Positions 3-28,862 of a stretch of DNA of 32,181 nt are shown here, piece after piece; positions within the stretch are counted from its first letter, which is position 1, and each line of letters begins with the position of its first letter. Location of the stretch: positions 1-32,181 of IMG/VR virus record IMGVR_UViG_3300030330_001729, one strand, 5' to 3'. Made by a program: the position numbers and the translations under genes. A model generated the notes under the pieces. It saw only the letters and a list, made by a program, of their open reading frames with translations, was not told the DNA's origin and searched no databases. Source of the stretch: a virus. Lineage: Duplodnaviria > Caudoviricetes.

Positions 3-1205
3 CTGAATCACCACGGGTCTGGTTCGTCACGGTGCTTGCTGCTCTCAGCACGCCGGAGGCCGCTGGACGAGAGAGGCAGGCGATGGCTCAAGGTACATGC
101 AAGCAATATGTGGGGTTACGACAAGGCTGACTATGACTCCCGCGCTGACTTCATTGATGACCGTATCGGTGAGATTGAGGCCATCGCCTACAACCCTGAA
201 GACCACATCGAACTATGGCGAAATGCCGACGAGCCGCTCCAGTACGTGGCTGCCTGCATGGCTCTGACCTTCGACGAGATCGGTGAGCGGATGATGGTTC
301 AGGCTGACGGCTCATGCAATGGGCTGCAGCACTACACCGCTGCGGGGCTGGATGAATTGGCTGCACCCTCAGTGAACCTGGTCCGAGGGGCCACCCCCGG
401 TGATGCCTATGAAGATGTCCTTCGATTTGTCATGCCAAAGATCGAGAAGGCTGCGGGCAAGGGGCATGAGTTAGCGAACAAGCTGATGCCCTACATGCTT
501 GAGAGCGGGCGGTCGATCCTGAAGCAGCCGGTTATGACCAAGAACTACAACGTCACCCACGTTGGAGCTAGATCCCAGATCCGGGCCGCCCTCAAGAAGC
601 ATGGGTATCCAACCCAAGAACTCTATGAAGGGGCCAGCTACCTATCTAGGAATGTTATGAAATCCGTGGGCGAAGCCTTCCCCGCAGCCCAAGCAATTAT
701 GTCTTGGATTGAGACATGCGCCCGCAAGATCGTGAATTCCAAAGCTGCCCAGCCCCTTAGCTGGGTCGGACCCACTGGATTCCCCGTGGTTCAGCCCTAC
801 CGAAACAACCGGCAATTCCGCATCAACACCCTGCTGCAGTCTGTGACGGTGGCTGCAGTTGATGTGAAGTCCCCTATTGCCAAGCAGAAGCAGATTCAGG
901 CTGCCAGCCCGAACGTCATTCACTGCTGGGATGGGGCGCATCAGCAGCTTACGGCGATTGAATGTGCCGAAGAGGACGTTGATATGGCCGGGGTCCACGA
1001 TTCGTACTGGAGCCATGCGGCCACGATGGATGACCTGCACGCGATCCTTCGCAGGCAATTCGTCCTGATGCACCAAGCTGATCTGGTCATGGATCTCTAC
1101 ACCCAGTGGAAGGGCCGGTATCCACGGGTCGAATTACCCCTGCCCCCATCCAAAGGGACGCTGGATCTTGAGCTAGTCAACGATTCGCCGTACTTCTTTC
1201 ACTAG
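3..1205 (+). CDS. Single-subunit (T7/mitochondrial family) DNA-directed RNA polymerase, C-terminal part; 5' end lies outside the window
   Basis: Motif A DGSCNGLQH, motif B RSILKQPVMTKNY, PNVIHCWDGAH, motif C VHDSYWSH, C-terminal YFFH; frame is open from base 3 (LNHHGSGSSRCLL), so the TTG at 36 is not the true start. Confidence 0.97.
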   Translation: MNHHGSGSSRCLLLSARRRPLDERGRRWLKVHASNMWGYDKADYDSRADFIDDRIGEIEAIAYNPEDHIELWRNADEPLQYVAACMALTFDEIGERMMVQADGSCNGLQHYTAAGLDELAAPSVNLVRGATPGDAYEDVLRFVMPKIEKAAGKGHELANKLMPYMLESGRSILKQPVMTKNYNVTHVGARSQIRAALKKHGYPTQELYEGASYLSRNVMKSVGEAFPAAQAIMSWIETCARKIVNSKAAQPLSWVGPTGFPVVQPYRNNRQFRINTLLQSVTVAAVDVKSPIAKQKQIQAASPNVIHCWDGAHQQLTAIECAEEDVDMAGVHDSYWSHAATMDDLHAILRRQFVLMHQADLVMDLYTQWKGRYPRVELPLPPSKGTLDLELVNDSPYFFH

Positions 1206-1220: not shown

Positions 1221-1775
1221 ATGGATAAACAGAAGCAATTTGCATTGATATTTTCGACTGGCCCGACATGGGACCAGAAGACTAGACAGATGAGCCGCAA
1301 GGGCAAATGGAGGCTGGCGTGGGCCAACCCCCAGTTGTTCTACACCCTGATGGGTTCATGGCTTGTCGGGGCTGTATTCCGAACTTCAATCCGGCACGTG
1401 GCCGTGACAAATGGCACGGTTGTATTGAATCAGAACTTCCAGGAGATTAGGTTCTGGTCTTACGAGGCGTTTGTACGCATCTACCCCAACATCGTCGCGT
1501 ATGTTCCATTAGGCAACACGCTGTCTGTTGATTGGGAAAAGTATGAAAACCTTCCTAAGCGGAGCCTTTTCTACGCCACCTTTGCTCGCTTTGCCATGCT
1601 ATTTACTTGCGGCCTGTACCAATGCGACAACTGTGTATCCACAGCTAGGGCTGTGCTGAAGGACGCGGGGGTCTATGTTCCACGGTCAGCGTGGCATCCT
1701 AAAAAACTCGTAAGTTGGCTAATGGAGAATGGTTATGGCTGTCTACCCGGCTCGCCTCCCTCATACTGTGAGTGA
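1221..1775 (+). CDS. Hypothetical protein, possibly permuted papain-like (NlpC/P60 superfamily) peptidase/amidase
   Basis: 184 aa; His in IRHVAV precedes DNCVS and a later P-x-x-L motif, the His-before-Cys order of permuted papain folds; function is inference. Confidence 0.5.
   Translation: MDKQKQFALIFSTGPTWDQKTRQMSRKGKWRLAWANPQLFYTLMGSWLVGAVFRTSIRHVAVTNGTVVLNQNFQEIRFWSYEAFVRIYPNIVAYVPLGNTLSVDWEKYENLPKRSLFYATFARFAMLFTCGLYQCDNCVSTARAVLKDAGVYVPRSAWHPKKLVSWLMENGYGCLPGSPPSYCE
1403..1418. repeat. 16-bp palindrome copy 1 (CGTGACAAATGGCACG, 1 mismatch)
   Basis: Matches CGTGCCA-AA-TGGCACG at 15/16; lies inside CDS 1221-1775. Confidence 0.75.
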
Positions 1776-1947: not shown

Positions 1948-2170
1948 TATTCCAAGCAACAACGCTCCAGCCACTACTGTCGCAACAGTCGAAGAGGAAC
2001 CAGGGCTGGTAATGAAGGTCGATGACCCTGCCAAGCCGCCTCATACCGAGAAGACAGAGGCCCAGCGGCGTGCCGAAAGAGGCACTGAAGGCACTAGACA
2101 GAGCCTTGTAATTAACCAGCTAGGCGGGGTGGGCATGAATGTGCCGAGCCAAGGGGTCGGTAAAGGGTGA
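1934..2170 (+). CDS. Small putative virion assembly protein (T7 gp6.7/7.3-like position)
   Basis: AAGGAG RBS; 78 aa low-complexity Pro/Ala-rich protein directly upstream of and overlapping the portal gene. Confidence 0.6.
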   Translation: MGAPSIPSNNAPATTVATVEEEPGLVMKVDDPAKPPHTEKTEAQRRAERGTEGTRQSLVINQLGGVGMNVPSQGVGKG

Positions 2171-3771
2171 TCGACCAGACAATTCGCAAGGACTTCCTGC
2201 TGTACGACAGCCAGAGGCAGGAATCCTTAGAGCGTGCTAGGCACTGTGCCAGCCTTACAAAGCCGTGGGTACTTCCCCCGGACGGCTGGTCAGAAGACCA
2301 GCCCCTAGATTCGACTTTCTCCTCTCTGGCAGCCCGTGGAATTACTAATCTTGAAGGGCGGCTATTGCTCGCCCTGTTTCCACCCGGTATGCCATTCTTC
2401 CGATTCAGACCATCGAGCCGTTTCCGTTTCGATCCGGGCGTAGACCCCCAGCAGTTGAGCGAATTTGCTGACCTCCTGCGATTGCAGGAAATGGTCATTA
2501 TGGCTCACTTAGAAAGCATGGACAGAGCCGGTCACGGAAACGCTCGACGGGCTGGATTTCGTTCCCGAATGAGGACGGCGATCAGCCAACTCCTTATTAC
2601 CGGGGATGTCCTGATCCACATGTCTGATGACATGAATCTCAGGGTTTTCCGCAGGGACAATTACGTCACAAAGCGGGATTCGTCCGGCGATATTCAGTGC
2701 CACATTACTCGTGAGAGCATTGATCCCCTGACCCTTTCCGCACAGCAGCTTGACCAACTCGAACTAGACTTCGACACCCTTGCCGCAAAGCCACACCATG
2801 ACCGGATGGAAGACTTATTCACCCGCGTCTCTTGGAACCCTATCTCGAAATCGTGGCTGATCGAGCAAGAAATCAAAGATAAGAAGATTCTTGAGACTAC
2901 TGAGAAGGTCACACCGTATTTCAGCGTGGCCTTTGAGCTACCCCCAGCCGCCAATTATGGCCGAGGCTTGATCGAACAGAACCTTGGCGACGTTCGATCA
3001 ATGAATGAGCTTACCGAGCGGCTGCTGGATTTTGCGGCCCTATCGAGCAAGCTGCTCTTTGCTGTGGACTACAGCAGCCAGGTCCGGCCAGAAGATTTAG
3101 CACGTTCAACCGGCGAGGTGATTCAGGCCCGTGTCCAATCTGGACAGGTTACGGACATCGGGATGCTCAAGGTAGACAAGCTGCAGGATTTCAACATTGT
3201 CGGCACAACACGCGAAAGCATCCGAAAAGACCTATCGGTCACGATGCTGATGGAGAGCGAGTCAACTCCACGCGGGGAACGAGTCACGGCATTCCAAGTT
3301 CAACGAGTAGCAATGGAACTTGAAGGGGCTTTGGGAGGCGTATACGCCCCCATCGCTGACGCGATGCAGATTCCTTTGATTGAAAGGCTCATTTCGGTCC
3401 TGAATAGCAAGGGCGTGCTGCCAACCTTGCCTGATGAATCAGTCGAGGTAGAAGCTGTGACCGGAATCCAAGCTCTCTCTAACGAGTCTGACAACAGCAA
3501 ACTCATGCAGCTTATGCAAACGATTGCACAGCTTGGTCCCGAAACAATGGGCCGAATCGACAAAGGCATCCTCATGGATCTTCTGGTACGGCAGTCCGGC
3601 ATTTACGAGCCGGGACTCGTTAAGACTGATGAGCAAATCCAGCAAGAAGAACAGGCTGCACAGGAAGCAGCCATGAAGCAGCAGATACAGGCACAAGCGT
3701 TACAGACGGGTGGCAAGATTGTGGAGCAGAACGCCGCCCAACAACCTATAGAGGAAATGGTAAATGTCTGA
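2167..3771 (+). CDS. Head-to-tail connector (portal) protein, T7 gp8-like
   Basis: 534 aa; ARGITNLEGRLLLALFPPGMPFFRF, YVTKRDSSG, NYGRGLIE, RGERVTA, ELEGALGGVY motifs; Gln/Ala-rich C-terminus. Confidence 0.95.
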   Translation: MIDQTIRKDFLLYDSQRQESLERARHCASLTKPWVLPPDGWSEDQPLDSTFSSLAARGITNLEGRLLLALFPPGMPFFRFRPSSRFRFDPGVDPQQLSEFADLLRLQEMVIMAHLESMDRAGHGNARRAGFRSRMRTAISQLLITGDVLIHMSDDMNLRVFRRDNYVTKRDSSGDIQCHITRESIDPLTLSAQQLDQLELDFDTLAAKPHHDRMEDLFTRVSWNPISKSWLIEQEIKDKKILETTEKVTPYFSVAFELPPAANYGRGLIEQNLGDVRSMNELTERLLDFAALSSKLLFAVDYSSQVRPEDLARSTGEVIQARVQSGQVTDIGMLKVDKLQDFNIVGTTRESIRKDLSVTMLMESESTPRGERVTAFQVQRVAMELEGALGGVYAPIADAMQIPLIERLISVLNSKGVLPTLPDESVEVEAVTGIQALSNESDNSKLMQLMQTIAQLGPETMGRIDKGILMDLLVRQSGIYEPGLVKTDEQIQQEEQAAQEAAMKQQIQAQALQTGGKIVEQNAAQQPIEEMVNV

Positions 3772-4582
3772 CGAAGCTAGTGCAGGCGGCAACCAGCCAG
3801 CGCCAACATTCGGAATTCAAGCCTCCGGGCAAACTCCACAGCCTGAAGCGGAAACAGTTGAAGGTGCGACAATCACGCCGCTCAACCCGCCTGACGAATC
3901 AGGAAACCCTGAAAGCATGTCGGCCAGAATGTGGGCAGATAAATTTAAGTCACCAGAAGACATGGAAAAGTCTTATCTGGAACTGGAAAAGAATTTTCAT
4001 TCCAAGCCCAATACAAGCGAAATGGGTGTTGATGCCCTGCTTGAACACGCTGGGCTTCGCGGGGATGAACTTGCTACTAATTGGTCACAACAAGGCAGCT
4101 TGACAGACGATCAATACCAAGCGTTTGCAAAAATCGGATTGTCTCGTGAGCTAGTTGACACATTCATGCGAGGTGAAGCAGCCAACGCACAGAACACTGT
4201 GTACAGGCAAGAAAAGATGATCCAGAAAGGACATGATCTTGCTGGCGGCAAAGATGAGTTTCAGGCTTTGATGCGGTGGGCAAACGACAAGCTGCCCCAA
4301 GATCGCATTGCAGAGCTTGAAGCCAGGATGAATGACCCTAGACAGTTTGAGGGAGCAATCAAAGAGATGCTCTGGGACTGGCGAGACAGCACTGGTCGAG
4401 GCGGAATCAATAAACAGATTCTTGCTGGCGAAGCAATGCCCAATGTTTCAGCGGGATTCCAAACCGTTGATGAGTACCTAACCGCGATGCAGAGTCAGAA
4501 GCGGCAGGGCAAGTTTGACCCTGTATTCCTGAAGCGAATGCAGAACACCCCGAACCATATCATCAACGGAGTAGATAGATGA
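3764..4582 (+). CDS. Capsid assembly scaffolding protein, T7 gp9-like
   Basis: KFKSPEDMEKSYLELEK motif, AGGKDEFQALMRWA; acidic; located between portal and capsid; GAGG RBS. Confidence 0.9.
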   Translation: MSDEASAGGNQPAPTFGIQASGQTPQPEAETVEGATITPLNPPDESGNPESMSARMWADKFKSPEDMEKSYLELEKNFHSKPNTSEMGVDALLEHAGLRGDELATNWSQQGSLTDDQYQAFAKIGLSRELVDTFMRGEAANAQNTVYRQEKMIQKGHDLAGGKDEFQALMRWANDKLPQDRIAELEARMNDPRQFEGAIKEMLWDWRDSTGRGGINKQILAGEAMPNVSAGFQTVDEYLTAMQSQKRQGKFDPVFLKRMQNTPNHIINGVDR

Positions 4583-4995
4583 ACGACGCAAGACTAAACA
4601 TGCAAGCAATTAACTTGCAAATGAAGCACAACCTGCGACCTGCTTTCACTATTCGTGCTGGCGGTGGTGGGATCTATTGCCACCTCGTACATGGCGCTAC
4701 TGGTGAATATAAGTTTGGCGGCGGCGGAAACACTGAAGAGGAGGCATTTGCCCGTGCGTATGAGAAATTTGAAACAGCGCCGGACAGCCCCGACGCGAAA
4801 GCCGTCCAAGCTGAGAATGAAAATCTCCGTGAGCAACTCGCGGCTATGGAGTCCAAGCTGGAAAACTCCACGCCTGATGCACTGGAGGCGAGCGACAGCA
4901 ATGGTTCGACATCTGATGATGCTGACGAAGTAGCTGAAGCACCTGTCAAGAAGACACGCCGCAAGCGAAAGTCCTCTTCATCAACACCGTTTTGA
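4579..4995 (+). CDS. Hypothetical protein with coiled coil and basic C-terminal tail
   Basis: 138 aa, ATGA overlap with scaffold stop; ENENLREQLAAMESKL coiled coil; KKTRRKRK tail. Confidence 0.7.
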   Translation: MNDARLNMQAINLQMKHNLRPAFTIRAGGGGIYCHLVHGATGEYKFGGGGNTEEEAFARAYEKFETAPDSPDAKAVQAENENLREQLAAMESKLENSTPDALEASDSNGSTSDDADEVAEAPVKKTRRKRKSSSSTPF

Positions 4996-5007
4996 TTTAA
5001 CCTTTCC

Positions 5008-5042
5008 GCACCTGATGGCCCTCCGGGCTGTTGGGTGTTTTT
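5008..5042 (+). terminator. Intrinsic terminator-like hairpin upstream of the capsid gene
   Basis: CACCTGATGGCCC-TCC-GGGCTGTTGGGTG stem with several G-U pairs, followed by TTTTT. Confidence 0.65.
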
Positions 5043-5072
5043 GCAGATATGAGCCTGACCGCAATGGGATAA

Positions 5073-5094
5073 CTACGTGCCAAATGGCACGTAG
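5073..5094. repeat. 16-bp palindrome copy 2, extended to 22 bp (CTACGTGCCAAATGGCACGTAG)
   Basis: Perfect core at 5076-5091; intergenic, between the terminator and the capsid RBS. Confidence 0.9.
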
Positions 5095-5165
5095 CCTCAT
5101 GGGCGTGAAGACAACTCACTGCGTTGTTTACACACCAACCCCACTCCCATTTTGAGGAAAATGAT

Positions 5166-6410
5166 ATGACTGATATTGGTTCAACCTATCTGACCAGAGG
5201 TCTGATGGATGAAGCGCAAAGTACACCAACAGATCGTGATATGGCTCTTAAGCTGTTTTCGGGATCGGTCCTGGAAGCCTTTCGCCAGAAAACAGTTTTC
5301 TACGATAACACTGGATCGTTCATGGCCCAGCGCACACTTACTGGTGGTGATACCGCTAAGTGGCCTGTGATCGGCGACGATCTTGAGCTTTACAACATTG
5401 GTAACTGGAACGTCGATGGTGACGGCACTTCGTTTGAGAATGCCGCAGACATCGCATCAGACGGCGGTATCCTTGGTGGCTACCACACCCCCGGTGAATT
5501 TATCAAGGGACGCAAGGTAAATCTGTCCGAGAAGGCCGTGACCGTGGACGACGCCCTGGTCGCCGCAATCGATGTCCCCTTCATCGACTTGGACTTGAGC
5601 CACTTTGACGTTTTGCAGCCATTTGCGACCAAATTGGGCCGGTCCCTGGCTATTGATAATGATCGCAAGATTGCAACTATTGCAATGAACGCTGCGAAGT
5701 CTGCTGATGAAACCGGCGTGTATAAGGGCGGCTCACACGTTCTTCGTACTGGGTCCAATTCGGTCGCCACTGCTTACGAAGACAGCCAAGTTGGCTCAAG
5801 CAAGTTCCGTGCAGACGTTGCGGAATTGGCTCAGAACTTTGATGACAAGCATGTGCCTGAAGATGGCCGCTATCTGTTCGTCAGCCCATACATTCGTCGC
5901 ATCCTTCGCCACGAAGGTACTGGCTGGGCGTTCGGCCCATCGGCACAGACTGCAGTTTCACCGAATACGAGCGAAACTGCTATCTACGGCCCCGCTGGCA
6001 ACCCTTACAGCCGCGATCAAACTTCGCGTCCTTGGGATGTCAACATGCGAACTGTTGGAATGCTCGAAGGTTTCAACATCATCATTACGACTTCGCTCCC
6101 CGGCACTGCGCCTTATGGGTGGCTCGAATCAACGAGCGGTCGCTACAACCTAATTAACTCCCGTCTTGGAAAGTACGACTTCAACTGCACGGGTGATGAC
6201 ACTGACACAGCAAAGCCTGCCGCTATCGCACTCTGCGGTGCGCAGGAAGGCAATGCAGCTATCGGCATGGTTCAGGCTGCGGGCATGAGAACCGTTGTCC
6301 AGGATGATGAGCGCAGGAACGTAAAATTCCTAAAGTCCCAAATGCTAGTAGGTTACGACGTTCTTTCGCCTTGGTGCGCGGGAATGATCGGAGTCGCTAC
6401 GACCTCTTGA
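5166..6410 (+). CDS. Major capsid protein, T7 gp10-like (HK97 fold)
   Basis: LKLFSGSVLEAF, RTLTGGDTAKWPVIG, EKAVTVDD, FDDKHVPEDGRYLFVSP motifs; GAGG RBS 5154-5157 favours ATG 5166 (414 aa). Confidence 0.93.
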   Translation: MTDIGSTYLTRGLMDEAQSTPTDRDMALKLFSGSVLEAFRQKTVFYDNTGSFMAQRTLTGGDTAKWPVIGDDLELYNIGNWNVDGDGTSFENAADIASDGGILGGYHTPGEFIKGRKVNLSEKAVTVDDALVAAIDVPFIDLDLSHFDVLQPFATKLGRSLAIDNDRKIATIAMNAAKSADETGVYKGGSHVLRTGSNSVATAYEDSQVGSSKFRADVAELAQNFDDKHVPEDGRYLFVSPYIRRILRHEGTGWAFGPSAQTAVSPNTSETAIYGPAGNPYSRDQTSRPWDVNMRTVGMLEGFNIIITTSLPGTAPYGWLESTSGRYNLINSRLGKYDFNCTGDDTDTAKPAAIALCGAQEGNAAIGMVQAAGMRTVVQDDERRNVKFLKSQMLVGYDVLSPWCAGMIGVATTS

Positions 6411-9895: not shown

Positions 9896-10747
9896 ATGTC
9901 AGAACTAAAAACAAACAACATCAACACCTACGATGCCACTGATATCAAGCTGAAGTCCGACCTTGTAAGTAACAGCACGGAAAATGTCCTAGTCGGGGGA
10001 GTAGTTACTGCCGGGACCACGACTGCTCCAACGGGAGGTGAGAAACTCAGGGTCAATGGTGATGCGGTAATTACCGGCTCTACTACGCTTGGAAATGCTG
10101 TTACTGTTTCTACAGGCGGAATTGACGTTGACGCTGGCGGAATACAGGTTGACGGCGGACTAATCGTAGACTCTGGAACCTGCCGATTCGATGAGAGTGT
10201 AGAGGTCGTTGCTGGCGGACTCACCGTCACGGCTGGCGGGGCAAGCATTAACGGCACGACTGCCGTTGCGGGCAATACGTCCGTGACTGGCAACATGACC
10301 GTCGCCTCTGGGACCACGAGCCTTGGCGGGGCATTAACTGTTTCTACTGGAGGGGCCACGATTACTGGCGGCCTCGAAGTTGATGGTGTCGCGTTTTCTG
10401 GCGGCGGCGGTGGGACCAACAATATCAAAGCCTCGATTTGTGGTGAGCTTGACCTCACGACTACCACCGATGCCAGCGGCAACGTCACTCGCCAGATGGC
10501 AAATCTGAACACGCAGAATTCCCAAAATGCGTCTATGACCCAAAGTGGACATGACATCGTGGTAACACTAAGCCCTGCGATGAGCGACACGGCGTATCAC
10601 GTGCATGTCAGCGGGGTAAATGTTGAAGTCAATAAAGACAGCACAAGCCAATTTACTTTGGTCTTGAAGCAAGAATGCCACTTGGGCAATGATGAAACGG
10701 AAACCACTTCCGATATGCACATCGGAATACTTGTACTGGACTTCTGA
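9896..10747 (+). CDS. Tail fibre/spike-like protein with repetitive beta shaft
   Basis: 283 aa; repeats such as GGIDVDAGGIQVDGGL and GGLTVTAGGASING; Gly linker then a compact beta C-terminal domain. Confidence 0.7.
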   Translation: MSELKTNNINTYDATDIKLKSDLVSNSTENVLVGGVVTAGTTTAPTGGEKLRVNGDAVITGSTTLGNAVTVSTGGIDVDAGGIQVDGGLIVDSGTCRFDESVEVVAGGLTVTAGGASINGTTAVAGNTSVTGNMTVASGTTSLGGALTVSTGGATITGGLEVDGVAFSGGGGGTNNIKASICGELDLTTTTDASGNVTRQMANLNTQNSQNASMTQSGHDIVVTLSPAMSDTAYHVHVSGVNVEVNKDSTSQFTLVLKQECHLGNDETETTSDMHIGILVLDF

Positions 10748-11379
10748 TGAGAACAACACTTCAAGCTGTTCAGGAAATGGCACGCAGGCTAGGCAAGCAC
10801 CCCCCTGCCGGACTTGACACCGGCGGAAATTCCTTACAGGCACAGCTTGAGCGAGTCCTAGACGATGCTTCTAATTCCGTTCAATCAGAAGGCTGGTTCT
10901 GGAATACTAAGCACAACATTACTGTTACTCCTACTGGTAGCAAGATCCAAGTGAATCAATTGGAAAATGTTGCCGATATAGGTGTGTCGCCCATCTATGC
11001 AACAATTTTCCATGTCGATACTGACGGCACTGATTCCAACGTGAATGTCGTTCGCAATGGTGATTATCTATACAACCTCACGGACAACACCGACACGTTT
11101 ACTAGCAGCATAAAGCTAACCTATACATACAAACGTGAGTTTGAAAATGTCCCAGAGGCGTTCCAGTCCTGGATTATTGCATTGGCGAGTTTCAACTACA
11201 ACCGGCATTACATCGGTGATAAATCAAGCGATGGTGCTTTGCAGGTAGAAATGCAAGACGCACGCCGACAGGCGACACGCGAAGAAATACGATCCGCTGA
11301 TGTCAATGTTTTAAATACGCAGGAAATGCGGCAAATACGGGGTCGCCGTAGAACCCCTGATCGGAGTGTGTACGAGTAA
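10747..11379 (+). CDS. Tail tubular protein A (T7 gp11-like adaptor), copy 1
   Basis: 210 aa; TTLQAVQEM...VQSEGWFWNT...LYNLTDNTDTF...FENVPEAFQSWI motifs. Confidence 0.88.
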   Translation: MRTTLQAVQEMARRLGKHPPAGLDTGGNSLQAQLERVLDDASNSVQSEGWFWNTKHNITVTPTGSKIQVNQLENVADIGVSPIYATIFHVDTDGTDSNVNVVRNGDYLYNLTDNTDTFTSSIKLTYTYKREFENVPEAFQSWIIALASFNYNRHYIGDKSSDGALQVEMQDARRQATREEIRSADVNVLNTQEMRQIRGRRRTPDRSVYE

Positions 11380-12011
11380 TGGCTACAACAGGCATGACTT
11401 TCGTTGAGGCAATCAACGAGCTTGTGGAGACAATCAATGAGTTTCCGATGTCCGGGTCAGCTAAGCCCAGCGCGGCTGATCCTGTTGATTCCACTTCGAT
11501 CTATGCAAGAGCGGAAACATTTATTGACCGCGAAAGCCGTCGCCTGCAGGCTCTTGGGTGGCCTGAGAACACCACTTTGGCCCGGCCTGTCACTGCAGAA
11601 AGTGGCGAGAAGACAGTGCTTGTAGAGTCATTTCTTAGTGTACGCGCTGCCGGTCCTGACCAGCATCGAAGCCTTGTCATGCGAAAAGACGGCACTAACA
11701 CCAAGCTGTTTGATGCTGACAAGCAGTCATTTGACATCACAAGCGATGCCGATGGAACTGTGTATCTCGACACTGTTGAAGAGCTTGACTTTGAGTACCT
11801 GCCAAACCACCTACAGGACGTAATTGTTGCCCGTGCAAAGATGACGTTCCAGCGGCGCATTCAGGGCAATCCTGAGACAGATCAGCAGCTTCTTCAAGAA
11901 TACATGCAGGCTGAACAGTTGGCTTTCCGCAACAAGCCAGACCTCGATCAGAACTTCAACATTCGTCCCATGCTTGGGGCGACTGAGCAACAGGAACAAC
12001 GACGTAGATGA
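11379..12011 (+). CDS. Tail tubular protein A (T7 gp11-like adaptor), copy 2 (divergent paralogue)
   Basis: 210 aa; TFVEAINEL...LQALGWPENT...LFDADKQSF...LDFEYLPNHLQDVIVARAKMTFQ...G, same motif order as copy 1. Confidence 0.8.
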   Translation: MATTGMTFVEAINELVETINEFPMSGSAKPSAADPVDSTSIYARAETFIDRESRRLQALGWPENTTLARPVTAESGEKTVLVESFLSVRAAGPDQHRSLVMRKDGTNTKLFDADKQSFDITSDADGTVYLDTVEELDFEYLPNHLQDVIVARAKMTFQRRIQGNPETDQQLLQEYMQAEQLAFRNKPDLDQNFNIRPMLGATEQQEQRRR

Positions 12012-14542
12012 ATCAACCAGTTATAGAGTCAGTCCCCAGCCTTTCACAAGGCATTTCAAGACAGGCTCCTTCGCTGCGATATCCAGGTCAAGTTGAAGAT
12101 GCCAAGAACGTCAATTTCTCCGTGGTAGACGGAGCAAGGAAACGGCGAGGCACTGTTCCTCTAAAAGAACTTACCGGCAATGCTGGAAGCCAAACTGAAT
12201 ATCGAATTCATCGTATCGAACGAGATGATGGTGAGGAATACGCAATCATCTATGGCACTGGTTACCTGAACATTGTTGATATCAACAGCGGGGCCGAGGC
12301 CCAAATTATCGGCAGCCCTTCAAGCTATCTTGGCAACGCTCGGGCCGATCAAATCAAGTTTTCAACTATTGCAGATGCCACATTTGTAGTAAACAGTGCC
12401 AGACAAGCGTTCTGCACAAACGACACGTGTGATGAAATTGACGCTGCTACGATGCCGCACTTGCTCAAGCGGACGAGTATTAGCCCGCTAAGGTTTTCGT
12501 TTGAAGCTGTCCCGTGGAAAAACAGATCGTTCAACCGGCAAATTATTAAAAAGCGAAGCGATACAAGCTGGGCTTATATCAGCTACAACGGATCAACTTC
12601 GCTGCCACTGCTCTATGACATGGGGGCAGACTATGTACAGAAAGCCATTGAAGGCAATGGCAAAAGCCCGCGTGCATCACTGAAGATCAAGTCTTTCACG
12701 ACTACCGAACAGAATAGCGTTACAGACGAGGCTACAAACCAATCGTGGACGCACGCTAATACGATAACGACTTATCCATTGAATCCTGGAACATGGCCTC
12801 CTGTTTACCAATTTATTGAAACCGACCCATACCCAAACACTATTTGGGCGCAGGCTGTTGAAGGGTTGGCGGCATTCAAATGGGGCAAGGTGATTTGCAC
12901 AGGCGGACCTTTGCATCAGGCTGACACTGTTGTCCAAGTTTCACCAGACATGATTGTGGAACACATGTTGTCCGTTAGCGGCACTACTGTTCTCCGTGGC
13001 GACAACGACACTGACCCCCCTCCCCCATTTGTGCGTGACCCTGTAACTGGCGCAAATGGCGGCATTCCAATCAGGGATATCAGCTTTACCCGCAACCGTC
13101 TTTGTATTGCTTGTGGCGAATACCTTTGTTTTAGCGCCATCGACAATCTGTACCAGTTCTATATGGAAGAGCCTCCCACTCTTACTGATTCGGACCCGAT
13201 TGTCGTTCAACTGGCCTCCTCAGATGTCAGCCTTGTTGACTTTGTAGTCCCGTTCCAAAAGTCACTTATTGTTCTGACCTCTAGCGGGCAGCAATTCGAG
13301 ATGACAGCATCCGAGGCATTTACACAGTCAACTGCTTCCATTTCTCCGTCTACGAAATATGAGACACAGAATTGTCGCCCTGCCCAAATTGGCAACCGAA
13401 TGCTTATGGTTGGCAGTAGCGCTGACTACTCCACGCTCTTGGAGTACGTCAGTAACGAGCGGACACTCAGCAACACTGCTATTGACTTGACAACGCATGT
13501 TGATGATCTTCTGCCTAAAGAATCGCTATCTGTGCTTACTGCGCCATCTCAGGAAATGACTTTCATCATTCCTAAGATTGAAAATGAGGTCGATGTCGGC
13601 AAGACAATAACTTCAAATGCCGATGGGGCATTTAACGCCACTTCAACATGGGTTGGCACGGATACTCCTGACCAGTGGGACACAATCATAGTGACCACCA
13701 TCGTCAGCATGACAGGTACAGAAGCATCGCCTGACTACCCAAGCACTGCACCAGATGACCCATCTGCGGTCGATTCTGTTATGTACGTTCATCGCAGTCA
13801 TACCATTGGCAATGAGCGCAAGCAGTCTGCCTGGTCCCGTTGGACATTTGGCAATGACCGTCTTCAGGACGCTCGTGTCTACGATGACATAATGGTGTTG
13901 CTTCGCAAAGAAAAGGTTGGAGCCTACTGGAAGCTCAAACTTGACACCCTCAACTTGTCAGAAGGCCAAGATTCACCTACTGATTTCCCGTGGAATCCAC
14001 ACCTTGACCATCGGGAATACTTTGGCGGAGGAACTTACACTAGCAATAAGACGCGATGGACCTGTGACGGGCTGACTATTGACACTATCATTACAGAAGA
14101 TGGTGAAGAGTACGCCGCCACGAACAACGGCACATATGTATTCGGTCCTGACAATGTGGACATATCCTCGAAAAAGGTGTACTTGGGCCGGAAGGTCGTG
14201 TCTGAGCTAACCCTGTCAACGATCTTTCCGCGTGATAGACAAGGGCGAGCCAACACAGAGGGCCGCATGTCACTCCAGAAGTTGGTAGTCGGCCATCACC
14301 GGACTTCTGAATACGACATTACAACCACAACAACTAACGCCTTAGCTTTGCCTCGTGCCGAACGATTTACTGCCGCAAGCGCATCGACGCTTGAGACAGG
14401 AAAATCAACAGCCTGGATAAGTGGCAAGAACGACGAGACAACTATCAAGCTGCAGTCTGACAACGCCAAGCCTTGCGTTTGGGTGTCAACTGAAGCTCAT
14501 GGCGTACACAGTACAAGCCTGCGGGAGAACCGAAATGGGTGA
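12008..14542 (+). CDS. Tail tubular protein B (T7 gp12-like nozzle)
   Basis: 844 aa; PSLSQGISRQAPSLRYPGQ, VVDGARKRRG, IRDISFTRNRL, DSDPI, KQSAWSRWTF motifs. Confidence 0.93.
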   Translation: MNQPVIESVPSLSQGISRQAPSLRYPGQVEDAKNVNFSVVDGARKRRGTVPLKELTGNAGSQTEYRIHRIERDDGEEYAIIYGTGYLNIVDINSGAEAQIIGSPSSYLGNARADQIKFSTIADATFVVNSARQAFCTNDTCDEIDAATMPHLLKRTSISPLRFSFEAVPWKNRSFNRQIIKKRSDTSWAYISYNGSTSLPLLYDMGADYVQKAIEGNGKSPRASLKIKSFTTTEQNSVTDEATNQSWTHANTITTYPLNPGTWPPVYQFIETDPYPNTIWAQAVEGLAAFKWGKVICTGGPLHQADTVVQVSPDMIVEHMLSVSGTTVLRGDNDTDPPPPFVRDPVTGANGGIPIRDISFTRNRLCIACGEYLCFSAIDNLYQFYMEEPPTLTDSDPIVVQLASSDVSLVDFVVPFQKSLIVLTSSGQQFEMTASEAFTQSTASISPSTKYETQNCRPAQIGNRMLMVGSSADYSTLLEYVSNERTLSNTAIDLTTHVDDLLPKESLSVLTAPSQEMTFIIPKIENEVDVGKTITSNADGAFNATSTWVGTDTPDQWDTIIVTTIVSMTGTEASPDYPSTAPDDPSAVDSVMYVHRSHTIGNERKQSAWSRWTFGNDRLQDARVYDDIMVLLRKEKVGAYWKLKLDTLNLSEGQDSPTDFPWNPHLDHREYFGGGTYTSNKTRWTCDGLTIDTIITEDGEEYAATNNGTYVFGPDNVDISSKKVYLGRKVVSELTLSTIFPRDRQGRANTEGRMSLQKLVVGHHRTSEYDITTTTTNALALPRAERFTAASASTLETGKSTAWISGKNDETTIKLQSDNAKPCVWVSTEAHGVHSTSLRENRNG

Positions 14543-15167
14543 GCCAGTCTCAACAACTATCGCCGTCATTGGTCTTATGACTTCTGTTGCTGGTGGTATT
14601 TACAGTGGCCTTCAGCAGTCAGAAATGGCTGAAAGACAGAATGAGGCTATTGAGGCTGCAAAGAAACGAGCGGCTCGGAACCTTAAGGTTCAGGCTGGGC
14701 AACACCAGAAGAACAGGGATCTGCTGACACGGACGGCTTTGCGTAAAGCTGACTACGCCGCCCTACAGGAATCTTCCGCTCGTGCTGTGGCACGTGGACG
14801 AGCCAAGGCTGCATTGTCTGCGGGCGGTCGAGTCGCGTCTGCTGGCACATCGTCATTAGCACTACTTGAGCAAATTGAACTTAAGTCTTCGTGGAAGCAG
14901 TACATGATTTCCGAAGGGGCCAACATTGAAGTTCAGAACGCTAACAACGCCTATGACGCTGCAATGATCGGCGCGACACAGCAATACGAGGAACAATGGT
15001 TTGGTATGGATAACCAATTAACCAACTCTGTTGGACAAGGCTTCGGAAGCGGGCTGGCTGGGTTTGGCGGTGGATTGTCTATGACTGCCAGTGGACTTTC
15101 AATTTACAACTCAACAAACCCGCCACCCGGCGACCCCGGCGGGGGAGGTGGCGCACCAGATGGCTGA
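14535..15167 (+). CDS. Internal virion (ejection) protein, T7 gp14-like
   Basis: GGGAG RBS; MGEPVSTTIAVIG start; Ala/Gly/Gln-rich helical 210 aa with Gly-rich hydrophobic C-terminus; position after gp12. Confidence 0.75.
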   Translation: MGEPVSTTIAVIGLMTSVAGGIYSGLQQSEMAERQNEAIEAAKKRAARNLKVQAGQHQKNRDLLTRTALRKADYAALQESSARAVARGRAKAALSAGGRVASAGTSSLALLEQIELKSSWKQYMISEGANIEVQNANNAYDAAMIGATQQYEEQWFGMDNQLTNSVGQGFGSGLAGFGGGLSMTASGLSIYNSTNPPPGDPGGGGGAPDG

Positions 15168-17235
15168 ACGCAATAGAACAGCAGATTTCACAACGGACAC
15201 CAGTACGCCTACGTACAGTATGCCGTCAGCCGCTAGTCCAAATATCCAGTTTGCAGCAACGACCCCCAGATTTCAATCACAGGCTGGCCTTGATCTCGGC
15301 AGAGCATTGCAGCAATTCGGGGCAAGCACTGCTCAGGCTGCTTCTGTAGCCAAGAGCCTTGCAAACAAGAATGCCGCCGCAGGACTCAGTATCCTTGAAG
15401 GCGAGCGAATTGCCACTCAGTTGAAGTTTCGCTACGACGAAAAGAACTTTGAGATGGATATCGCTACCGATGAAGGCACGGTAAATCTCCGCGATTACAC
15501 CCTTGAAAGCATTGGCATTCGCATGGAAGCCAATGGTGGGAATGTGGGCGAGGCGGTGCGTGACACCACATTGGAATTGATTTCCTCACAGTTGCCAGAG
15601 GACGCTTCGGATCTTGAGAAAAGTGCGTACATGAGACGGGCATTCAAGCCTGTGTATGACTCAATGCTCAAGTATTACAACGATGATGTCCTGGCTCCAC
15701 ATAAAGAGCAGATTCAAAATGCTTGGGCGGTCCAATTTGCAGACATAAGCGGCCAGAATAACAAGCCGATTTCCGCTGCAAAGATTTGGGAGACATCAAA
15801 GTCAGCCTCTCAAGGGTACTGGTCACGCGATGAAGTCCCACAGATCATGGTGGACATTGCCGAAGAACACACAGATGACGGCAACTATGATCTAGCTATA
15901 GCTCAAATCAATTTGATTCCAGACGAAGATAGATACAAGACCTTGAAAGATGATGCGCTGAAGCGGGTATCCAAGGTCCGTTTAAGAGAGGTAATACCCC
16001 AGCTTGGTGAGCAACTGGACAGCCTTAACTCTGGAAGTATCTACGCGGGCTTTCCAATAATGAGCGATGATCTTGCCAAAGCCGCGTCTGATATTGCGTC
16101 TGACCCAAACCTAAGTCCATCTGAACGTGGGCAAGTTATAGATGCGATTGAGTCATGGGCAGTCAACTCGACTCTGCCAATGTTTACACGTGACATGGTA
16201 ATCGACCAAATTGATAATACTGTCGAAGCGTTTAGGCCCGGCGGTCTCAGTGATCCTGAATACACCAAGATGAAGTCTCGTATTCCGGGTGAAGATGAAA
16301 TGCGGGCGAAACGAAAAGCCCAAAGAGAGGCTTTAGACGATAAAGCCAATGACCTAATTAGTCAGCACATTCTTCGCGGGAAAACTGAAGTTCCGCCTCC
16401 AAGTGACCAAGTTCTTTATGCCCAGCTTGAGGAAGTGGACCCTGACCAAGCGGCAACATGGCGGCTCCAATACGAAGCAAGGCGTGACAGGGACTTGAAA
16501 GCCGCTGACAAGATGGATCAGGACAAGCAGTACGTCGATCTATCTATGAAACTCAGCAACATTTCTGACCTTACTGAACGACGCACTTACTTCCGCAACA
16601 ACATTTACGGCGAAGAGGGTTATCACGACGGCGTAAATCTCAATAATGAGCAGTTCGATGCCCTTCGCAAAATGGCCGGAATTGGAACTGACTCTGAAGG
16701 AATTGACTTTTCTGCTTACGGTGTTGACTGGGAGGGTTTAATTGAAACCGCTCGAAGCGAGTACGCCGCTGCCGCAGACGGGCAATGGACGCGAACCGGC
16801 GGCGGAGGCGGTCACTGGACCTGGGTAGAAAGAGAACAACCAGACGGCTTTGAGGCAGATTGGAAAAAAGCAGAAAATGAGATGCGATATGAAATCTTCA
16901 TGTTGACTAACGATGAAGAATTTAGATCCAAATTTCTTGCAAGTGATGATGTTGTATACAAGCGAATGCTTGTCCAATCACTATACGACCAAATGTTCAC
17001 CAAGTGGATTGGTCCGAGCATGAGTCAAAAGGAACGCCTAGAGGCAGAGATTCGCAAAGACCAGAGGACCGAAATTCAGACCAAAGAATCTTACAACACT
17101 CCTTGGCCCGAGCGAGAACTAGGCGAAAACTATGGGCTAATTAGATATCGAGGAATTTGGTATCGCGGAGATGCTAAAGAAAAGATGACTGAAACATACA
17201 CCCCGCCAGAAGCAAACAAGGATGATGGTAAATGA
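15160..17235 (+). CDS. Internal virion (ejection) protein, T7 gp15-like position
   Basis: GGAGGTG RBS before ATG 15160; 691 aa helical; DLGRALQQFG N-terminal pattern; call rests mainly on synteny. Confidence 0.65.
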   Translation: MAERNRTADFTTDTSTPTYSMPSAASPNIQFAATTPRFQSQAGLDLGRALQQFGASTAQAASVAKSLANKNAAAGLSILEGERIATQLKFRYDEKNFEMDIATDEGTVNLRDYTLESIGIRMEANGGNVGEAVRDTTLELISSQLPEDASDLEKSAYMRRAFKPVYDSMLKYYNDDVLAPHKEQIQNAWAVQFADISGQNNKPISAAKIWETSKSASQGYWSRDEVPQIMVDIAEEHTDDGNYDLAIAQINLIPDEDRYKTLKDDALKRVSKVRLREVIPQLGEQLDSLNSGSIYAGFPIMSDDLAKAASDIASDPNLSPSERGQVIDAIESWAVNSTLPMFTRDMVIDQIDNTVEAFRPGGLSDPEYTKMKSRIPGEDEMRAKRKAQREALDDKANDLISQHILRGKTEVPPPSDQVLYAQLEEVDPDQAATWRLQYEARRDRDLKAADKMDQDKQYVDLSMKLSNISDLTERRTYFRNNIYGEEGYHDGVNLNNEQFDALRKMAGIGTDSEGIDFSAYGVDWEGLIETARSEYAAAADGQWTRTGGGGGHWTWVEREQPDGFEADWKKAENEMRYEIFMLTNDEEFRSKFLASDDVVYKRMLVQSLYDQMFTKWIGPSMSQKERLEAEIRKDQRTEIQTKESYNTPWPERELGENYGLIRYRGIWYRGDAKEKMTETYTPPEANKDDGK

Positions 17236-20200
17236 GCCAAGCACAAACTGGTCCGGCTATTAACCCGGAAGAAATCGTGCCAAATGGCACGCCTGCAAAT
17301 GCAGAGGCTCAAGTCCAAACAACTCCCGAAACGCCGGAACAAGAGTACAAGGCACGTATGTCGCCTGATGACTTGCGTAAGGCAATCAGTGAACGAGCGG
17401 CAACTATGTCCGCTGACGGTAAAAGCCAAGAAGAGATCACTGAAGCCCTACAAACTGAATTTGGTCAGCAAATGCCTGAGCCGTCACCTGAAGAAGCAGG
17501 AACGGTTCAAGCCATGCAGTCTGGCGAAGTAGCCAAGTATGACGCTGATAAGCTCATAGAAGCTGCTGGTCAGCCTGATGTTCCGGGCATTGGCGGTATC
17601 ACGGAAGAGGAACTAGAAGCCCGTGCGCCGGAGGCTGAAAAGCAGCGGCGAGATCAACTGCCTGTCCTAGATAGGATGGTCGAAAACTACACAGGCTTCT
17701 ATCACGACGCTCATGGCAATATTTCGCCAGAAATGCAGTTTATCGAGCAGTGGATTGACCGGCCTATGTATGGCGGATTTATTCCACGTGATCCAATCAA
17801 TTCACTTTCCTATGCCCTGAGTGCTGCACGCGGCGCAGGAAAGATGCTTCTTTCTGTCAACAATATGATTCTGGGTGCTGCCGGATATGAACTGGATGAG
17901 CTACCAAATCCTGACACCGCACTGGGAACAAGCCAGAACAACTGGGGACCGGGCTTTGTCGAAGGCGGCACACAGTGGGGCTTGACTGCCCTTGCTGTCG
18001 CGTCGGGTGCTTACGCCCTTGCTCCTGGTGCAACGGCTGCTGCTCCGGGCTTTACAGGTGTGTTCTCTGGCACTGTCGGAGACATGGTTGCGTTTGACCC
18101 ACGCCAACCAAGCCTTGTCTCACTGGCTCGTGAGTTCACTGGCCCAGAATTGCAAGAGTACATGATGAACAAGGGGGGCTTATTTGCCTTTGCTGCACCA
18201 TTTGTTGGTGAAGAGGCTGATGATTTCCTAAAGCTGTTTGATCCTAAGTACATTGCCGAAACTGGCGGTGGTCAGGCTGTCGCCCGTTCTGCATTAGCAC
18301 TAGAAGGCTTCTTTGCCGCCATGACTATTGGTGGATTCTTCAAGGCTATCGGCGGGTCAGTACGCGGCTTTGACGCTATCGGAAGAGGCTTCGACTCCAG
18401 TACGCCTAAAGCCTCCGCCACCCCTATTCCGGGTGTTACGCAAGATCAGTTCCAGAAACTAATGATGGAAATGCCCCCGGAGATCCGCGATCTTCCGATG
18501 GATTCCGAGGCAGCCAAACGCTTTGCTCGCTATGTAAGTGAAGTTGTTGCGCGTGGAGCTAGAGCCGAGCAGTTGTACGCTGAAGGTTTGTCTAACCGCG
18601 AAGTGATTAGCAGGCTCGATGATGAGTTCGGTGGCACTGTCCAACAGCTTAAAGATGAGCATTGGCTTGAAGGCCAAGCAATCATGTTCTATCAGGCAAT
18701 GAGGAACACAGACAATCCTGTCACCATGCGACAAGCCCGTATTGCTGTAAATGGATTTGCTAAAGCTGGGCAAGATGTAACAAACAACTTCTTTGTCTCC
18801 CCCGCTCTTACCAAAGAAGCAGATGAAGCTATTGGTCGGCAGGCTATGGCTCCGACTCGTGAAGAACGACTGCAGCAAGTGTACGAAGCTGACTATAAGC
18901 AGCGGGTCAAAGATGCCGAGGCTGAAGGGAAGCCGATTCCAGAAAGAGCCACATCTGAAGATGAGGTGCTGCAACGTGGCGCTCAAGTTGAGTATGACCA
19001 GAAGCGGCAATCTATAATTGATGAAATCCGAGAGTCTCGCGGCATAGGTGATGACACTGATGCGTATGACGCTGAAACGGATAGACTTGTTAGACAAGCA
19101 GTCAAAAAGTTTGAAGCAGAGAACGTCAATCCACGGGAATATGGAGGCAGTGCTGCAGTCGTATTGAACCCACGGCCTTGGGTACAAGAAAAACTGACCC
19201 CCGCTGAAAAGCGATTTTGGGAAGAAGAAGCTGCTGGCGGCCTGGCCCAAGAAATGCGGGAAGCTGGGATCTACTACAAGGATGGCAAACTTGAAGTCCA
19301 TGATGCTGGGCTGGCCGACGATTACCTTTCAGACCTACTGGCTCTTCCACCGCAGGACCGCCCAAAGTTGCCGCCGTCGTTTTACCGCGAAGACTTCCTT
19401 AACAAGTTCAAAGACCCTGATGGCAACCTTATGGGTACTTCTCGCCCCGGCCAAGTCCAAGGACCGCTTAGGCCACCCGGTGACAGGCGACTGTTTCAGA
19501 CAGATGCCGAAGGCAACGTCAAAGGCAGCGTGCGTATTGACGAATACGATGAAGCAGCATTTATCACCTTGTACAAAACTGCTGACATTGACACAGTGAA
19601 CGAGGAAATGGCTCACGTGCTACGGGGTCAGCTTCTTGGCCCACGTGCAAAGCATCTGGCGAAAGGTAACAAGGGTACGCTCAAGCTCGATGAGATTGAA
19701 AAGGTTGAAGAACACTACGGCGTTGTCGATGGAAAATGGACAGAAGACCAAGAAGAAGCATTCGCCCGCGATATGCGAGCATTCATTCTGGACAACCAAG
19801 ATAGTCCAGAACTAAGCAAGGAATTTTCTTGGATGGCTGCCCATCTAAGAACTGTCCTGGATGACGCTAAGAATGGCGGCCTGTCCCAAGAACTAACTGA
19901 CGCTTCCGTAAACCTGTGGGCAATTCTGAAGAATAAGCGCAACTTGCCTATTCGGTACGGAGACAACCAGTACATTCCGGCACAGGACTGGTCCGCACTC
20001 ACTGCACGTATTGCAGAGCTTGAAGAACAGGGCATACCTTGGCAGTCCGTGATCGACCACAACGACTTGCTGGCTAATGCCGGGCTTCGCCAGACTCTTG
20101 ATGGCAAGGGCGATCTTCAGAAAATCGTTGCACTCTCCGATGACCTAGCCCGCGAAATGCGAGAGAAAAACGTACTTGGCAGACCCAAGGGCGATACACA

Positions 20201-23123: not shown

Positions 23124-23124
23124 C

Positions 23125-23400
23125 ATGAGTTCTGAACTTGAAGGCATGGCAAATCTGTATGACGATTATTTGCTGATGCTTCTAAAAAACGGTCGCACTG
23201 TTATCAATGACAATGGCGACATCGTTCAAGTACCCCTGTCTGCTTCTGACCTGAACGTCATTAGGCAGCGATTGAAGGATTGTGGCATAACAGCCATACC
23301 GACCAACAGCAACCCTATTGGTCACATTGTCGAAGAGATGCAGCGGCGTGGTCGCAAGCTACCCGCCCTTGATGATTCAGAAGACGCAGCAACCGCTTAG
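23125..23400 (+). CDS. terS: Terminase small subunit, T7 gp18-like
   Basis: 91 aa; SASDLNVIRQRLKDCGITA motif; upstream of TerL. Confidence 0.8.
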   Translation: MSSELEGMANLYDDYLLMLLKNGRTVINDNGDIVQVPLSASDLNVIRQRLKDCGITAIPTNSNPIGHIVEEMQRRGRKLPALDDSEDAATA

Positions 23401-23412
23401 GGGATTATTTAT

Positions 23413-23709
23413 ATGTCATGCAATGACTGTGACCACTCGAAAGAGGGGTACAGCCTTGTCTTCGTGGACTGGGTGGACTCCTGTGAACCAGCAGATAATT
23501 CAGACATTGATGTCTATGACATGCCTGAGCCGCAACGGCTTTTCAATGTGGGGTTCTTGCTGCATGACGAAGAAGACCACATAGTGGTCGCTGGTGGTTT
23601 CAAGCCTGCACTTGAAACCTTTGATTATGTGATTGCTATACCGCGTGTCGCCATCAATGCGATCCGTCCACTGGACATGTTCAGCGGAAACACGAACGAG
23701 GATGCCTGA
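23413..23709 (+). CDS. Small acidic hypothetical phage protein
   Basis: 98 aa; LVFVDWVDS...VGFLL...IVVA...IAIPRVAI pattern recurrent in phage hypothetical proteins. Confidence 0.7.
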   Translation: MSCNDCDHSKEGYSLVFVDWVDSCEPADNSDIDVYDMPEPQRLFNVGFLLHDEEDHIVVAGGFKPALETFDYVIAIPRVAINAIRPLDMFSGNTNEDA

Positions 23710-24569
23710 TGGTTCCATTTCAAGTCGAAGAAATAAGCCGAAACGTACACGTGGTTCGGATAGATGCCTCATCTTCTGGATTCGATTGGCAATGCTTGCT
23801 CTCATCGGATCGACACCACGACAACGGCCACACCAGTCACAAGCTAGAAAGAAAGCACCTGGAAATTGCCAAGGCAACCGGGGCCGGAATTGTAGATGTG
23901 GGCGATCTTCACTGTGCCATGCAAGGCAAGTGGGACAAGCGATCAGACTTGACTGCTACTCGCCCAGAGCAGCAGAACGGAAGATATCTGGACTCGCTGG
24001 TCGAATGTGCCGCCGATTTCTACGCCCCATACGCGGAGAACTTCATCGTCATAGGTCGCGGAAACCATGAGCAGTCGATTCTGAAACGGCATGAGACTGA
24101 CTTGACCGAGCGGACATGTGAGCGAATGAGCCAATTAAGTGGGTCGAAGGTCTATGCTGGGGGCTACGGTGGATGGATTAGATTCATCTTCCATGAAACC
24201 AAGACCCGGCGGCAAGTGGTCAACCTCAAATACTGGCACGGAGCGGGCGGAGGCGGCCCTGTGACGCGAGGTGTCATCAGAACCAACAGGATGGCCGTAT
24301 ACCTCCCTGACGCTCATCTGGTGGTCACAGGCCACACACACGATCAATGGCTCGTCCCCATTGCTAGAGAGCGTCTGACGCAGCGTGGGGCCGTCACAAT
24401 GGACGAGCAGTTGCACGTTCGGTGCGGCACGTACAAAGACGAGTACGGAGACGGCCATTCGGGCTGGCATATCGAGCGAGGCGGACCCCCGAAACCAATC
24501 GGCGCTCAATGGCTCCGGTTCTATCGGGAAGGTAATCATGTGAAATACACGGTGTCACGAGCAAAATAA
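23709..24569 (+). CDS. Calcineurin-like metallophosphoesterase
   Basis: All five motifs present: SDRH, VGDLH, GNHE, WHG, GHTH; 286 aa. Confidence 0.88.
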   Translation: MVPFQVEEISRNVHVVRIDASSSGFDWQCLLSSDRHHDNGHTSHKLERKHLEIAKATGAGIVDVGDLHCAMQGKWDKRSDLTATRPEQQNGRYLDSLVECAADFYAPYAENFIVIGRGNHEQSILKRHETDLTERTCERMSQLSGSKVYAGGYGGWIRFIFHETKTRRQVVNLKYWHGAGGGGPVTRGVIRTNRMAVYLPDAHLVVTGHTHDQWLVPIARERLTQRGAVTMDEQLHVRCGTYKDEYGDGHSGWHIERGGPPKPIGAQWLRFYREGNHVKYTVSRAK

Positions 24570-24588
24570 ACGTGCCAATTTGCACGTT
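24569..24588. repeat. 16-bp palindrome copy 5 (AA-CGTGCCAATTTGCACG-TT, 2 mismatches in core)
   Basis: Core 24571-24586 with flanking AA/TT symmetry; fills most of the 30-nt gap before terL. Confidence 0.7.
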
Positions 24589-24599
24589 GGAGAAAGTCA

Positions 24600-28503: not shown

Positions 28504-28541
28504 CCACCTATCAATAACCACCTACTAGGAAAGGTAACCAA

Positions 28542-28862
28542 ATGAAACAGACACAGAAAATCGGCAAATCAAAAGAAGCTAGACGGGTTTGCATCTGGAA
28601 CCGTGCAATGATCGACGCAGGGTTTCCCATCGGTCAACCCATCAGCGTAACGGCCAAGGGTAGCCGGGTAATCATTGAACCCGTCAAGGAATCACGGAAA
28701 AAGGTATCTGGTGTAACTAATCACGGGAACCTGCTTCCCGTCATCGACATGAAAGAAACAAAGTCTCTCAGCCTGTCCGGTTTGGGCGATATTGGCGACA
28801 CAGTACAGATCGCCATCACCGATGGCCGCATCACCGTATCCCGCATCTCATCCACCTACTAG
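28542..28862 (+). CDS. AbrB/SymE-like swapped-hairpin protein, putative DNA-binding regulator
   Basis: RVCIWNRAMIDAGFPIGQPISV...VIIEP and a second similar half PVIDMK...GDTVQIAITDGRITV; first early gene. Confidence 0.6.
   Translation: MKQTQKIGKSKEARRVCIWNRAMIDAGFPIGQPISVTAKGSRVIIEPVKESRKKVSGVTNHGNLLPVIDMKETKSLSLSGLGDIGDTVQIAITDGRITVSRISSTY

Follow-up and report, generated by a model that had tools for sequence, protein, structure and literature searches.

A phage RNA polymerase lineage that includes AG-11 is the probable nearest viral relative of mitochondrial RNA polymerases

The window analysed here, the whole 32,181-nucleotide stretch of a Caudoviricetes virus record (IMG/VR IMGVR_UViG_3300030330_001729), begins inside a gene for a single-subunit RNA polymerase (RNAP) and continues through T7-like virion genes to the terminase region. 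Its features, with the basis of each assignment where one applies, are as follows.

3..1205, + strand: C-terminal 400 aa (residues 404-803) of a single-subunit RNAP; PF00940, 371.6 bits; 5' half off the contig
3..17, + strand: LNHHG motif of organellar type (NPQG in T7); motif alignment
306..332, + strand: motif A including the catalytic Asp (T7 D537); alignment
522..548, + strand: motif B/O-helix with Lys and Tyr (T7 K631, Y639); alignment
798..911, + strand: specificity-loop segment, 38 aa; alignment
993..1016, + strand: motif C, VHDSYWSH, with His-Asp at T7 H811/D812 and Trp replacing the T7 Gly; alignment
1221..1775, + strand: 184-aa ORF following the RNAP gene, with no Pfam or PHROG match; motif pattern
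2167..6410, + strand: portal, scaffold and major capsid protein (T7-like head module); domain/PHROG matches, portal tree
5076..5091, no strand: 16-bp palindrome upstream of the capsid gene, one of seven copies
10747..23123, + strand: two tail tube genes, nozzle, gp14-like and large internal virion proteins (podovirus tail/ejection)
23095..26306, + strand: small and large terminase region; domain/PHROG matches

The plus-strand frame at 3..1205 encodes 400 aa and runs off the 5' end of the contig, and all seven RNAP motifs quoted in the initial annotation are present in it. The complete 803-aa gene was recovered at metagenome locus L175 (339-2750), which is 99.86% identical to the window at the nucleotide level over a 2,091-bp overlap and whose protein ends in 400 residues identical to the window ORF; in the cluster representative P0002, encoded on a 38.7-kb contig, 394 of the 400 residues of this C-terminal half are identical. 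The full-length protein contains PF00940 RNA_pol (368.9 bits) and PF14700 RPOL_N (144.6 bits). Alignment to T7 RNAP shows that the catalytic residues of motifs A, B and C are intact, with D505, K577, Y585, H710, H735 and D736 corresponding to T7 D537, K631, Y639, H784, H811 and D812, and by this alignment ORF 3..1205 is assigned as the catalytic half of a T7-type single-subunit RNAP. The 38-aa specificity loop has the modal length of eukaryote rows and of the phage and prophage lineage defined by the trees below (hereafter the lineage), the T7 loop being 42 aa long, and a PAFxH motif precedes the intercalating hairpin, as in the organellar-type core. Fourteen residues precede alignment position 15 in the 803-aa protein, making the N-terminus short and phage-like, without an extension; in a 440-row set, the corresponding stretch spans 11-47 residues in the lineage and 25-598 in eukaryotes.

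The initial annotation had read the motifs of this enzyme as mitochondrial-type rather than T7-type, and the similarity scores bear this out. In phmmer searches against the PDB, through which alone the human and yeast enzymes were compared, as pairwise matches, the 400-aa fragment scored 235 bits with Rpo41, 207 with POLRMT and 119-120 with T7, and the full-length protein scored 361, 302 and 218 bits, respectively. In a 76-row alignment, 17 eukaryote rows share 40.2% identity with the C-terminal half, 29 lineage rows 42.1% and 29 outside rows 31.3%. An AlphaFold model of the RNAP (pLDDT 92.3) likewise retrieves the yeast and human mitochondrial enzymes with the best E-values, whereas by global TM-score the modelled shape is nearest to T7 elongation complexes, at 0.81-0.85, and reaches 0.59-0.67 with mitochondrial structures; we take this ranking to reflect the modelled N-terminal arrangement and not as evidence of function. 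An ESM Atlas search returned generic viral RNAP clusters only.

Discrete motifs follow the same pattern. In the 440-row set, HD[SAC][YF]W occurs in 93/93 eukaryote-clade rows, in 128/181 lineage rows and in 0/166 others, the lineage count, but not the 0/166, being inflated since part of the lineage rows were collected with the pattern VHDS[YF]WT. PV[VI]QPY is found in 59/93, 102/181 and 0/166 rows of the same three groups, and the NH-type motif in 82/93, 112/181 and 2/166. The organellar and T7 versions of these motifs given in the initial annotation agree with the actual sequences (PDB alignments, the T7 row L163 and the eukaryote rows). As organellar marks, the HD(S)YW, P.VQPY and NH-type motifs stood, and the first two are not widespread, being absent from the 166 outside rows; the terminal YFFx, LR..F and MT..YGVT are present in outside phages as well and are not diagnostic. 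Signature columns number 16 for eukaryotes plus lineage, four for lineage plus outside rows and two for eukaryotes plus outside rows. Judged from these alignments, the phage RNAP carries the core signature motifs of the Rpo41/POLRMT/RpoT class, with which it also has in common its best PDB matches, loop length and hairpin context; it differs from that class in being phage-encoded, in its 803-aa length without an N-terminal extension and in its position outside the eukaryote clade.

That position was obtained with row sets that were enlarged with HMMER representatives and then with a reciprocal IMG/VR scan seeded by the eukaryote alignment. FastTree analyses of 294, 351 and 440 rows gave the same sister placement of the lineage and the eukaryotes. 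In the 294-row tree, 58 eukaryote-type and 80 phage-size rows are united with SH 100; in the 440-row tree, the lineage comprises 181 phage or prophage rows (SH 99) and joins, with SH 100, 93 eukaryote-type rows (SH 99), most of which are assigned to eukaryotes by tree position. Named eukaryote rows cover land plants, two fungi, an amoebozoan, chlorarachniophytes, red algae and an apusozoan; the trees contain neither mitochondrial linear-plasmid RNAPs nor rows named as animal, yeast or excavate. Also left out were L159 (a fragment), L183-L188 and redundant plant and outgroup rows, and proteins longer than 1,500 or 1,200 aa were trimmed to their last 1,100 or 1,000 residues before alignment. All 12 cultured reference phages fell outside the lineage in the FastTree sets, and G546 (L211/L334), which lies inside the lineage in one tree and outside it in another, was not counted as a member. 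With IQ-TREE under LG+C20+F+G4 (PMSF; 60 rows by 759 columns, seven rows having odd composition), support was 100/100 for the eukaryotes, 99/96 for the lineage and 100/100 for their union, whose stem measures 0.38 (bootstrap correlation 0.998). Maximum-likelihood placement of the full gene among cultured phage, prophage and organellar RNAPs, which the initial annotation had proposed as a check, thus puts the phage RNAP beside the eukaryote organellar clade as its sister and not inside it. The next branch out consists of five prophage RNAPs (L098, L137, L140, L145 and L107; support 100/99) from Acidobacteriota, Planctomycetota and Actinomycetota MAGs, and N4 gp16 together with six divergent RNAPs attaches among the outside rows (quick LG+G4 tree, joint support 99). 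In smaller sets of 33 and 40 rows, lineage monophyly is weaker (SH 76-89), and the eukaryotes may therefore nest within the lineage.

We considered whether this placement could be an artefact of the tree or of sampling, with the likeness arising through slow change or convergence, or with the true sister, such as the linear-plasmid RNAPs, lying beyond the sample. The rows were initially gathered by similarity to the query, plasmid RNAPs are absent from the trees and some rows have odd composition. Against this, neither the lineage nor the eukaryotes are long-branched, the joint clade keeps full support under the C20 PMSF model, and the scan that started from eukaryotes recovered the same lineage, its best viral rows falling there. 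An AU test on 33 rows rejected a grouping of the lineage with the five nearest prophage RNAPs to the exclusion of eukaryotes, with p = 1.3e-5 under LG+F+G4 and p = 1.9e-5 under PMSF with a profile derived from the free guide tree; these p-values hold for those two models. The discrete shared motifs that are missing from the 166 other rows point the same way, and we consider an artefact quite improbable.

A sister topology by itself gives no direction, so that an ancestral phage could in principle have acquired its RNAP from a pre-LECA eukaryote or a proto-mitochondrion. However, the next branch and all deeper branches are phage or prophage, no viral row from the reciprocal scan falls inside the eukaryote clade, the lineage lacks the eukaryotic N-terminal extension, and its portal proteins form a matching phage group (see below). 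Such a reverse transfer is very improbable in our judgement. Transfer from phage to eukaryote is thus the direction we favour, and we hold with high confidence that no other sampled viral enzyme is nearer to the organellar RNAPs than that of this phage group, which is known but unstudied.

Several other RNAP loci surfaced during these searches. Four proteins within the eukaryote clade are encoded on mid-sized contigs: P0042 (a 44.7-kb contig), P0092 (43.5 kb), P0063 (60 kb) and P0035 (99.7 kb). Divergent T7-like RNAPs of 790-1,090 aa occur in Planctomycetota outside the lineage (L212-L216, L226, L227 and L201-L203), some of them on chromosome-scale contigs. The metagenome locus L183 has an RNAP match with no open frame above 200 aa under table 11, possibly because of stop-codon recoding.

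The genome around the RNAP gene is that of a podovirus. The RNAP gene sits directly before the virion module, as it does before the structural genes in phiKMV, and the self-encoded single-subunit RNAP together with predicted T7-like podovirus virion genes is a trait of Autographiviridae; T7, SP6, phiKMV and other cultured members share the RNAP fold, the catalytic residues and the T7-like virion module. Of the initial annotation's "intact podophage genome", the podovirus virion genes were confirmed, while the contig proved to be a 32-kb fragment that begins inside the RNAP gene. Within the tail module, two adjoining gp11-like tail tube genes, each encoding 210 aa, lie at 10747-12011, and by size such a pair is also present in L001 and L002. 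In a portal tree, 47 of 54 lineage loci plus the window (48 rows) fall on one side and 18 others on the opposite side (SH 99); the lineage portals therefore form one group, and the RNAP and virion genes travel together.

Replication genes lie upstream of the RNAP gene in relatives, where integrase, RecT/ERF/Sak4 annealing proteins, an SF2 helicase, a separate primase and a resolvase are encoded; the 79%-identical relative L177 carries primase-like and resolvase-like genes there, and an exact DNA scan of IMG/VR for the upstream part of the window phage gave 0 matches. When 12 lineage contigs (eight of them at least 90% complete) were compared with six controls, DNA polymerase A was found in 0/12 versus 6/6, full T7 gp4 in 0/12 (its primase half only in 5/12) versus 6/6, and integrase in 8/12 versus 3/6. 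The T7-type replication module that characterises Autographiviridae, comprising DNA polymerase A and the gp4 primase-helicase, is thus absent from these relatives. The lack of a T7 replisome in relatives and an RNAP identity of at most 35.2% among the best 60 of 2,730 matching phage records (50,697 searched) distinguish this phage from cultured Autographiviridae. The same counts for DNA polymerase A and gp4 lend no support to a Twinkle-like helicase or Pol gamma in the lineage. In a Phycisphaeraceae prophage (L084, 6323-8155), a fused, divergent 611-aa zinc-primase-helicase replaces the SF2 helicase and primase, and its PDB search gave no match to Twinkle or gp4.

Part of the lineage has been catalogued before. 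The consulted text of PMC12361551 describes AG-11 as a marine Autographiviridae group of 23 genomes, with host NA for 23/23, and lists the lineage members L240, L242 and L246 in it. AG-11 is described there as having no DNA polymerase, SSB or exonuclease and as carrying primase and helicase upstream of RNAP, which fits the lineage. L240 lies inside the RNAP lineage and is also among the rows nearest to the window's portal. By this proximity to AG-11 genomes, and by the upstream primase and missing DNA polymerase of its relatives, the window phage would belong to the AG-11 grouping. The main text of PMC12361551 contains 0 occurrences of "mitochond" and of "planctomy", and the lineage is wider than AG-11, with 181 rows including prophages versus 23 genomes. 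The reading of the initial annotation is supported with two refinements: the phage genomes are not new as a set, since the lineage contains AG-11, and the lineage has the RNAP alone in common with mitochondria, with no T7-type DNA polymerase or full primase-helicase.

Relatives provide the host evidence, which comes from their prophages and bins and does not extend to the window phage's own host. A pattern scan of 185,579 GTDB species gave 158 relatives; six of the best 80 belong to the lineage (four Planctomycetota, one Chloroflexota and one Mycobacterium bin), the scan pattern itself matching just 123/181 lineage rows. In G001, a Phycisphaeraceae MAG, a complete prophage of about 40.7 kb lies between housekeeping genes on a 285-kb contig, flanked by a perfect 44-bp repeat at a tRNA-Pro end; the neighbouring Ffh is present once, at 57-88% identity, in 14/15 relatives. 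In G003, of the same family, the terminase and integrase genes lie next to tRNA-Arg and host genes. Profile searches found lineage members in 3/144 genomes of G001's family, 2/401 of its class and 3/401 of its phylum, each count including G001, with one further member unstable. In all, seven Planctomycetota MAGs contain a lineage phage, five of them on short contigs assigned by binning.

These hosts bear on the identity of the ancient donor, for which a different carrier is compatible with the same tree: a prophage of the alphaproteobacterial endosymbiont, the lineage having since switched hosts or having alphaproteobacterial members beyond the sample. A phage lineage can move to other hosts in the course of 1-2 billion years, two lineage contigs (L083 and L087) are binned in non-planctomycete MAGs, and the contrast between 2/400 Planctomycetota (centre genome excluded) and 0/401 Alphaproteobacteria in profile searches is not significant alone. 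A planctomycete host for the IMG/VR member L236 also found no support, the tRNA-Thr fragment beside its integrase matching just 1/401 Planctomycetota, at 84%. On the other side, about 40 proteobacterial loci (counted manually from record titles) and four further alphaproteobacterial loci all fall outside the lineage, and integrated members were found solely in Planctomycetota MAGs (G001 and G003). We give the alphaproteobacterial donor a substantial chance, though short of even, and think a planctomycete host of the ancient donor rather unlikely.

Cermakian 1997, Filee and Forterre 2005, and Shutt and Gray 2006 are reportedly among the earlier works cited on this topic. The consulted portions of PMC9169541 and PMC8979003 derive mitochondrial RNAP from a T-odd phage, likely through an infected alphaproteobacterium, and those of PMC10386132 date the T7-mitochondrial RNAP split and name T7, gh-1, phiKMV and cyanophages. 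As far as the searched literature goes, a phage origin of mitochondrial RNAP is accepted and the donor lineage is unnamed; no report of the lineage-organellar RNAP sister relationship was found there, most subscription journals being outside its scope. In its consulted part, PMC13468126 names Planctomycetota as the source of 2.24% of the LECA proteome with no mention of a phage RNA polymerase, and the consulted part of bioRxiv 10.64898/2026.05.08.723234 also finds a Planctomycetota signal in LECA, part of which may be artefact.

With a living sister lineage, three questions become open to testing. The first is the form of the enzyme before the need for TFB2M/Mtf1. The second is the joint arrival of RNAP, Twinkle and Pol gamma; the lineage, with no DNA polymerase A and no full gp4, argues against joint arrival, or for later loss. 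The third is the carrier bacterium, with planctomycete prophages now in hand and Planctomycetota a proposed LECA donor in the consulted part of PMC13468126. The lineage also gives AG-11 its first host lead and supplies a set of single-subunit RNAPs yet to be characterised.

How the enzyme works in its own phage can be sketched from gene order. In a phiKMV-type layout, host RNAP reads the early region and the phage RNAP reads the late genes. By analogy, early transcripts, including that of the RNAP gene, would be made by host RNAP; the phage RNAP would then use its specificity loop and hairpin to read phage-specific late promoters, probably needing no TFB2M/Mtf1-like factor, and DNA synthesis would fall to a host polymerase. 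The 803-aa RNAP likely transcribes the late virion genes. In the general annotation of the 34 window ORFs and 90 upstream ORFs of relatives, no rRNA-methylase-like match appeared. The mitochondrial RNAP would have derived from an ancient temperate phage of the lineage or its stem, and the N-terminal extension and factor dependence would have been acquired after transfer to eukaryotes. As far as sequence comparison can tell, the virus from which eukaryotes obtained their mitochondrial RNAP is likely to have no closer living relatives than this uncultured phage group. We are fairly sure of the reading as a whole, in which the RNAP of the window belongs to a lineage that includes AG-11 and is sister to organellar RNAPs, likely serves late virion transcription and points to a donor of phage origin. 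Tentatively, and with more doubt than belief, one may go further: mitochondrial RNAP would come from a temperate, DNA-polymerase-less podophage of Planctomycetota and not from an alphaproteobacterial prophage, separately from Twinkle and Pol gamma, and the lineage enzyme would be a factor-independent intermediate between T7 RNAP and POLRMT.

A 16-bp palindrome has seven copies in the window (1403, 5076, 9397, 17276, 24571, 27651 and 28366; 0.12 expected), two of which shortly precede the capsid and large terminase genes, and is a candidate operator or promoter element. Its exact core was not found in 10 related loci, and a sigma-54 reading was dropped after 0 exact matches. A T7-style late promoter consensus was sought and none was found; the search turned up only the palindrome and a repeat in the early region, where a conserved 12-30-bp sequence immediately precedes the starts of some seven small early genes (28518-31949). 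Following the RNAP gene, an ORF of 180-226 aa with no family match recurs in L001, L003, L004, L006, L007, L083 and L085, and the order of a His followed by Asp/Asn-Cys in the 184-aa ORF of the window and these counterparts suggests a permuted papain-like enzyme.
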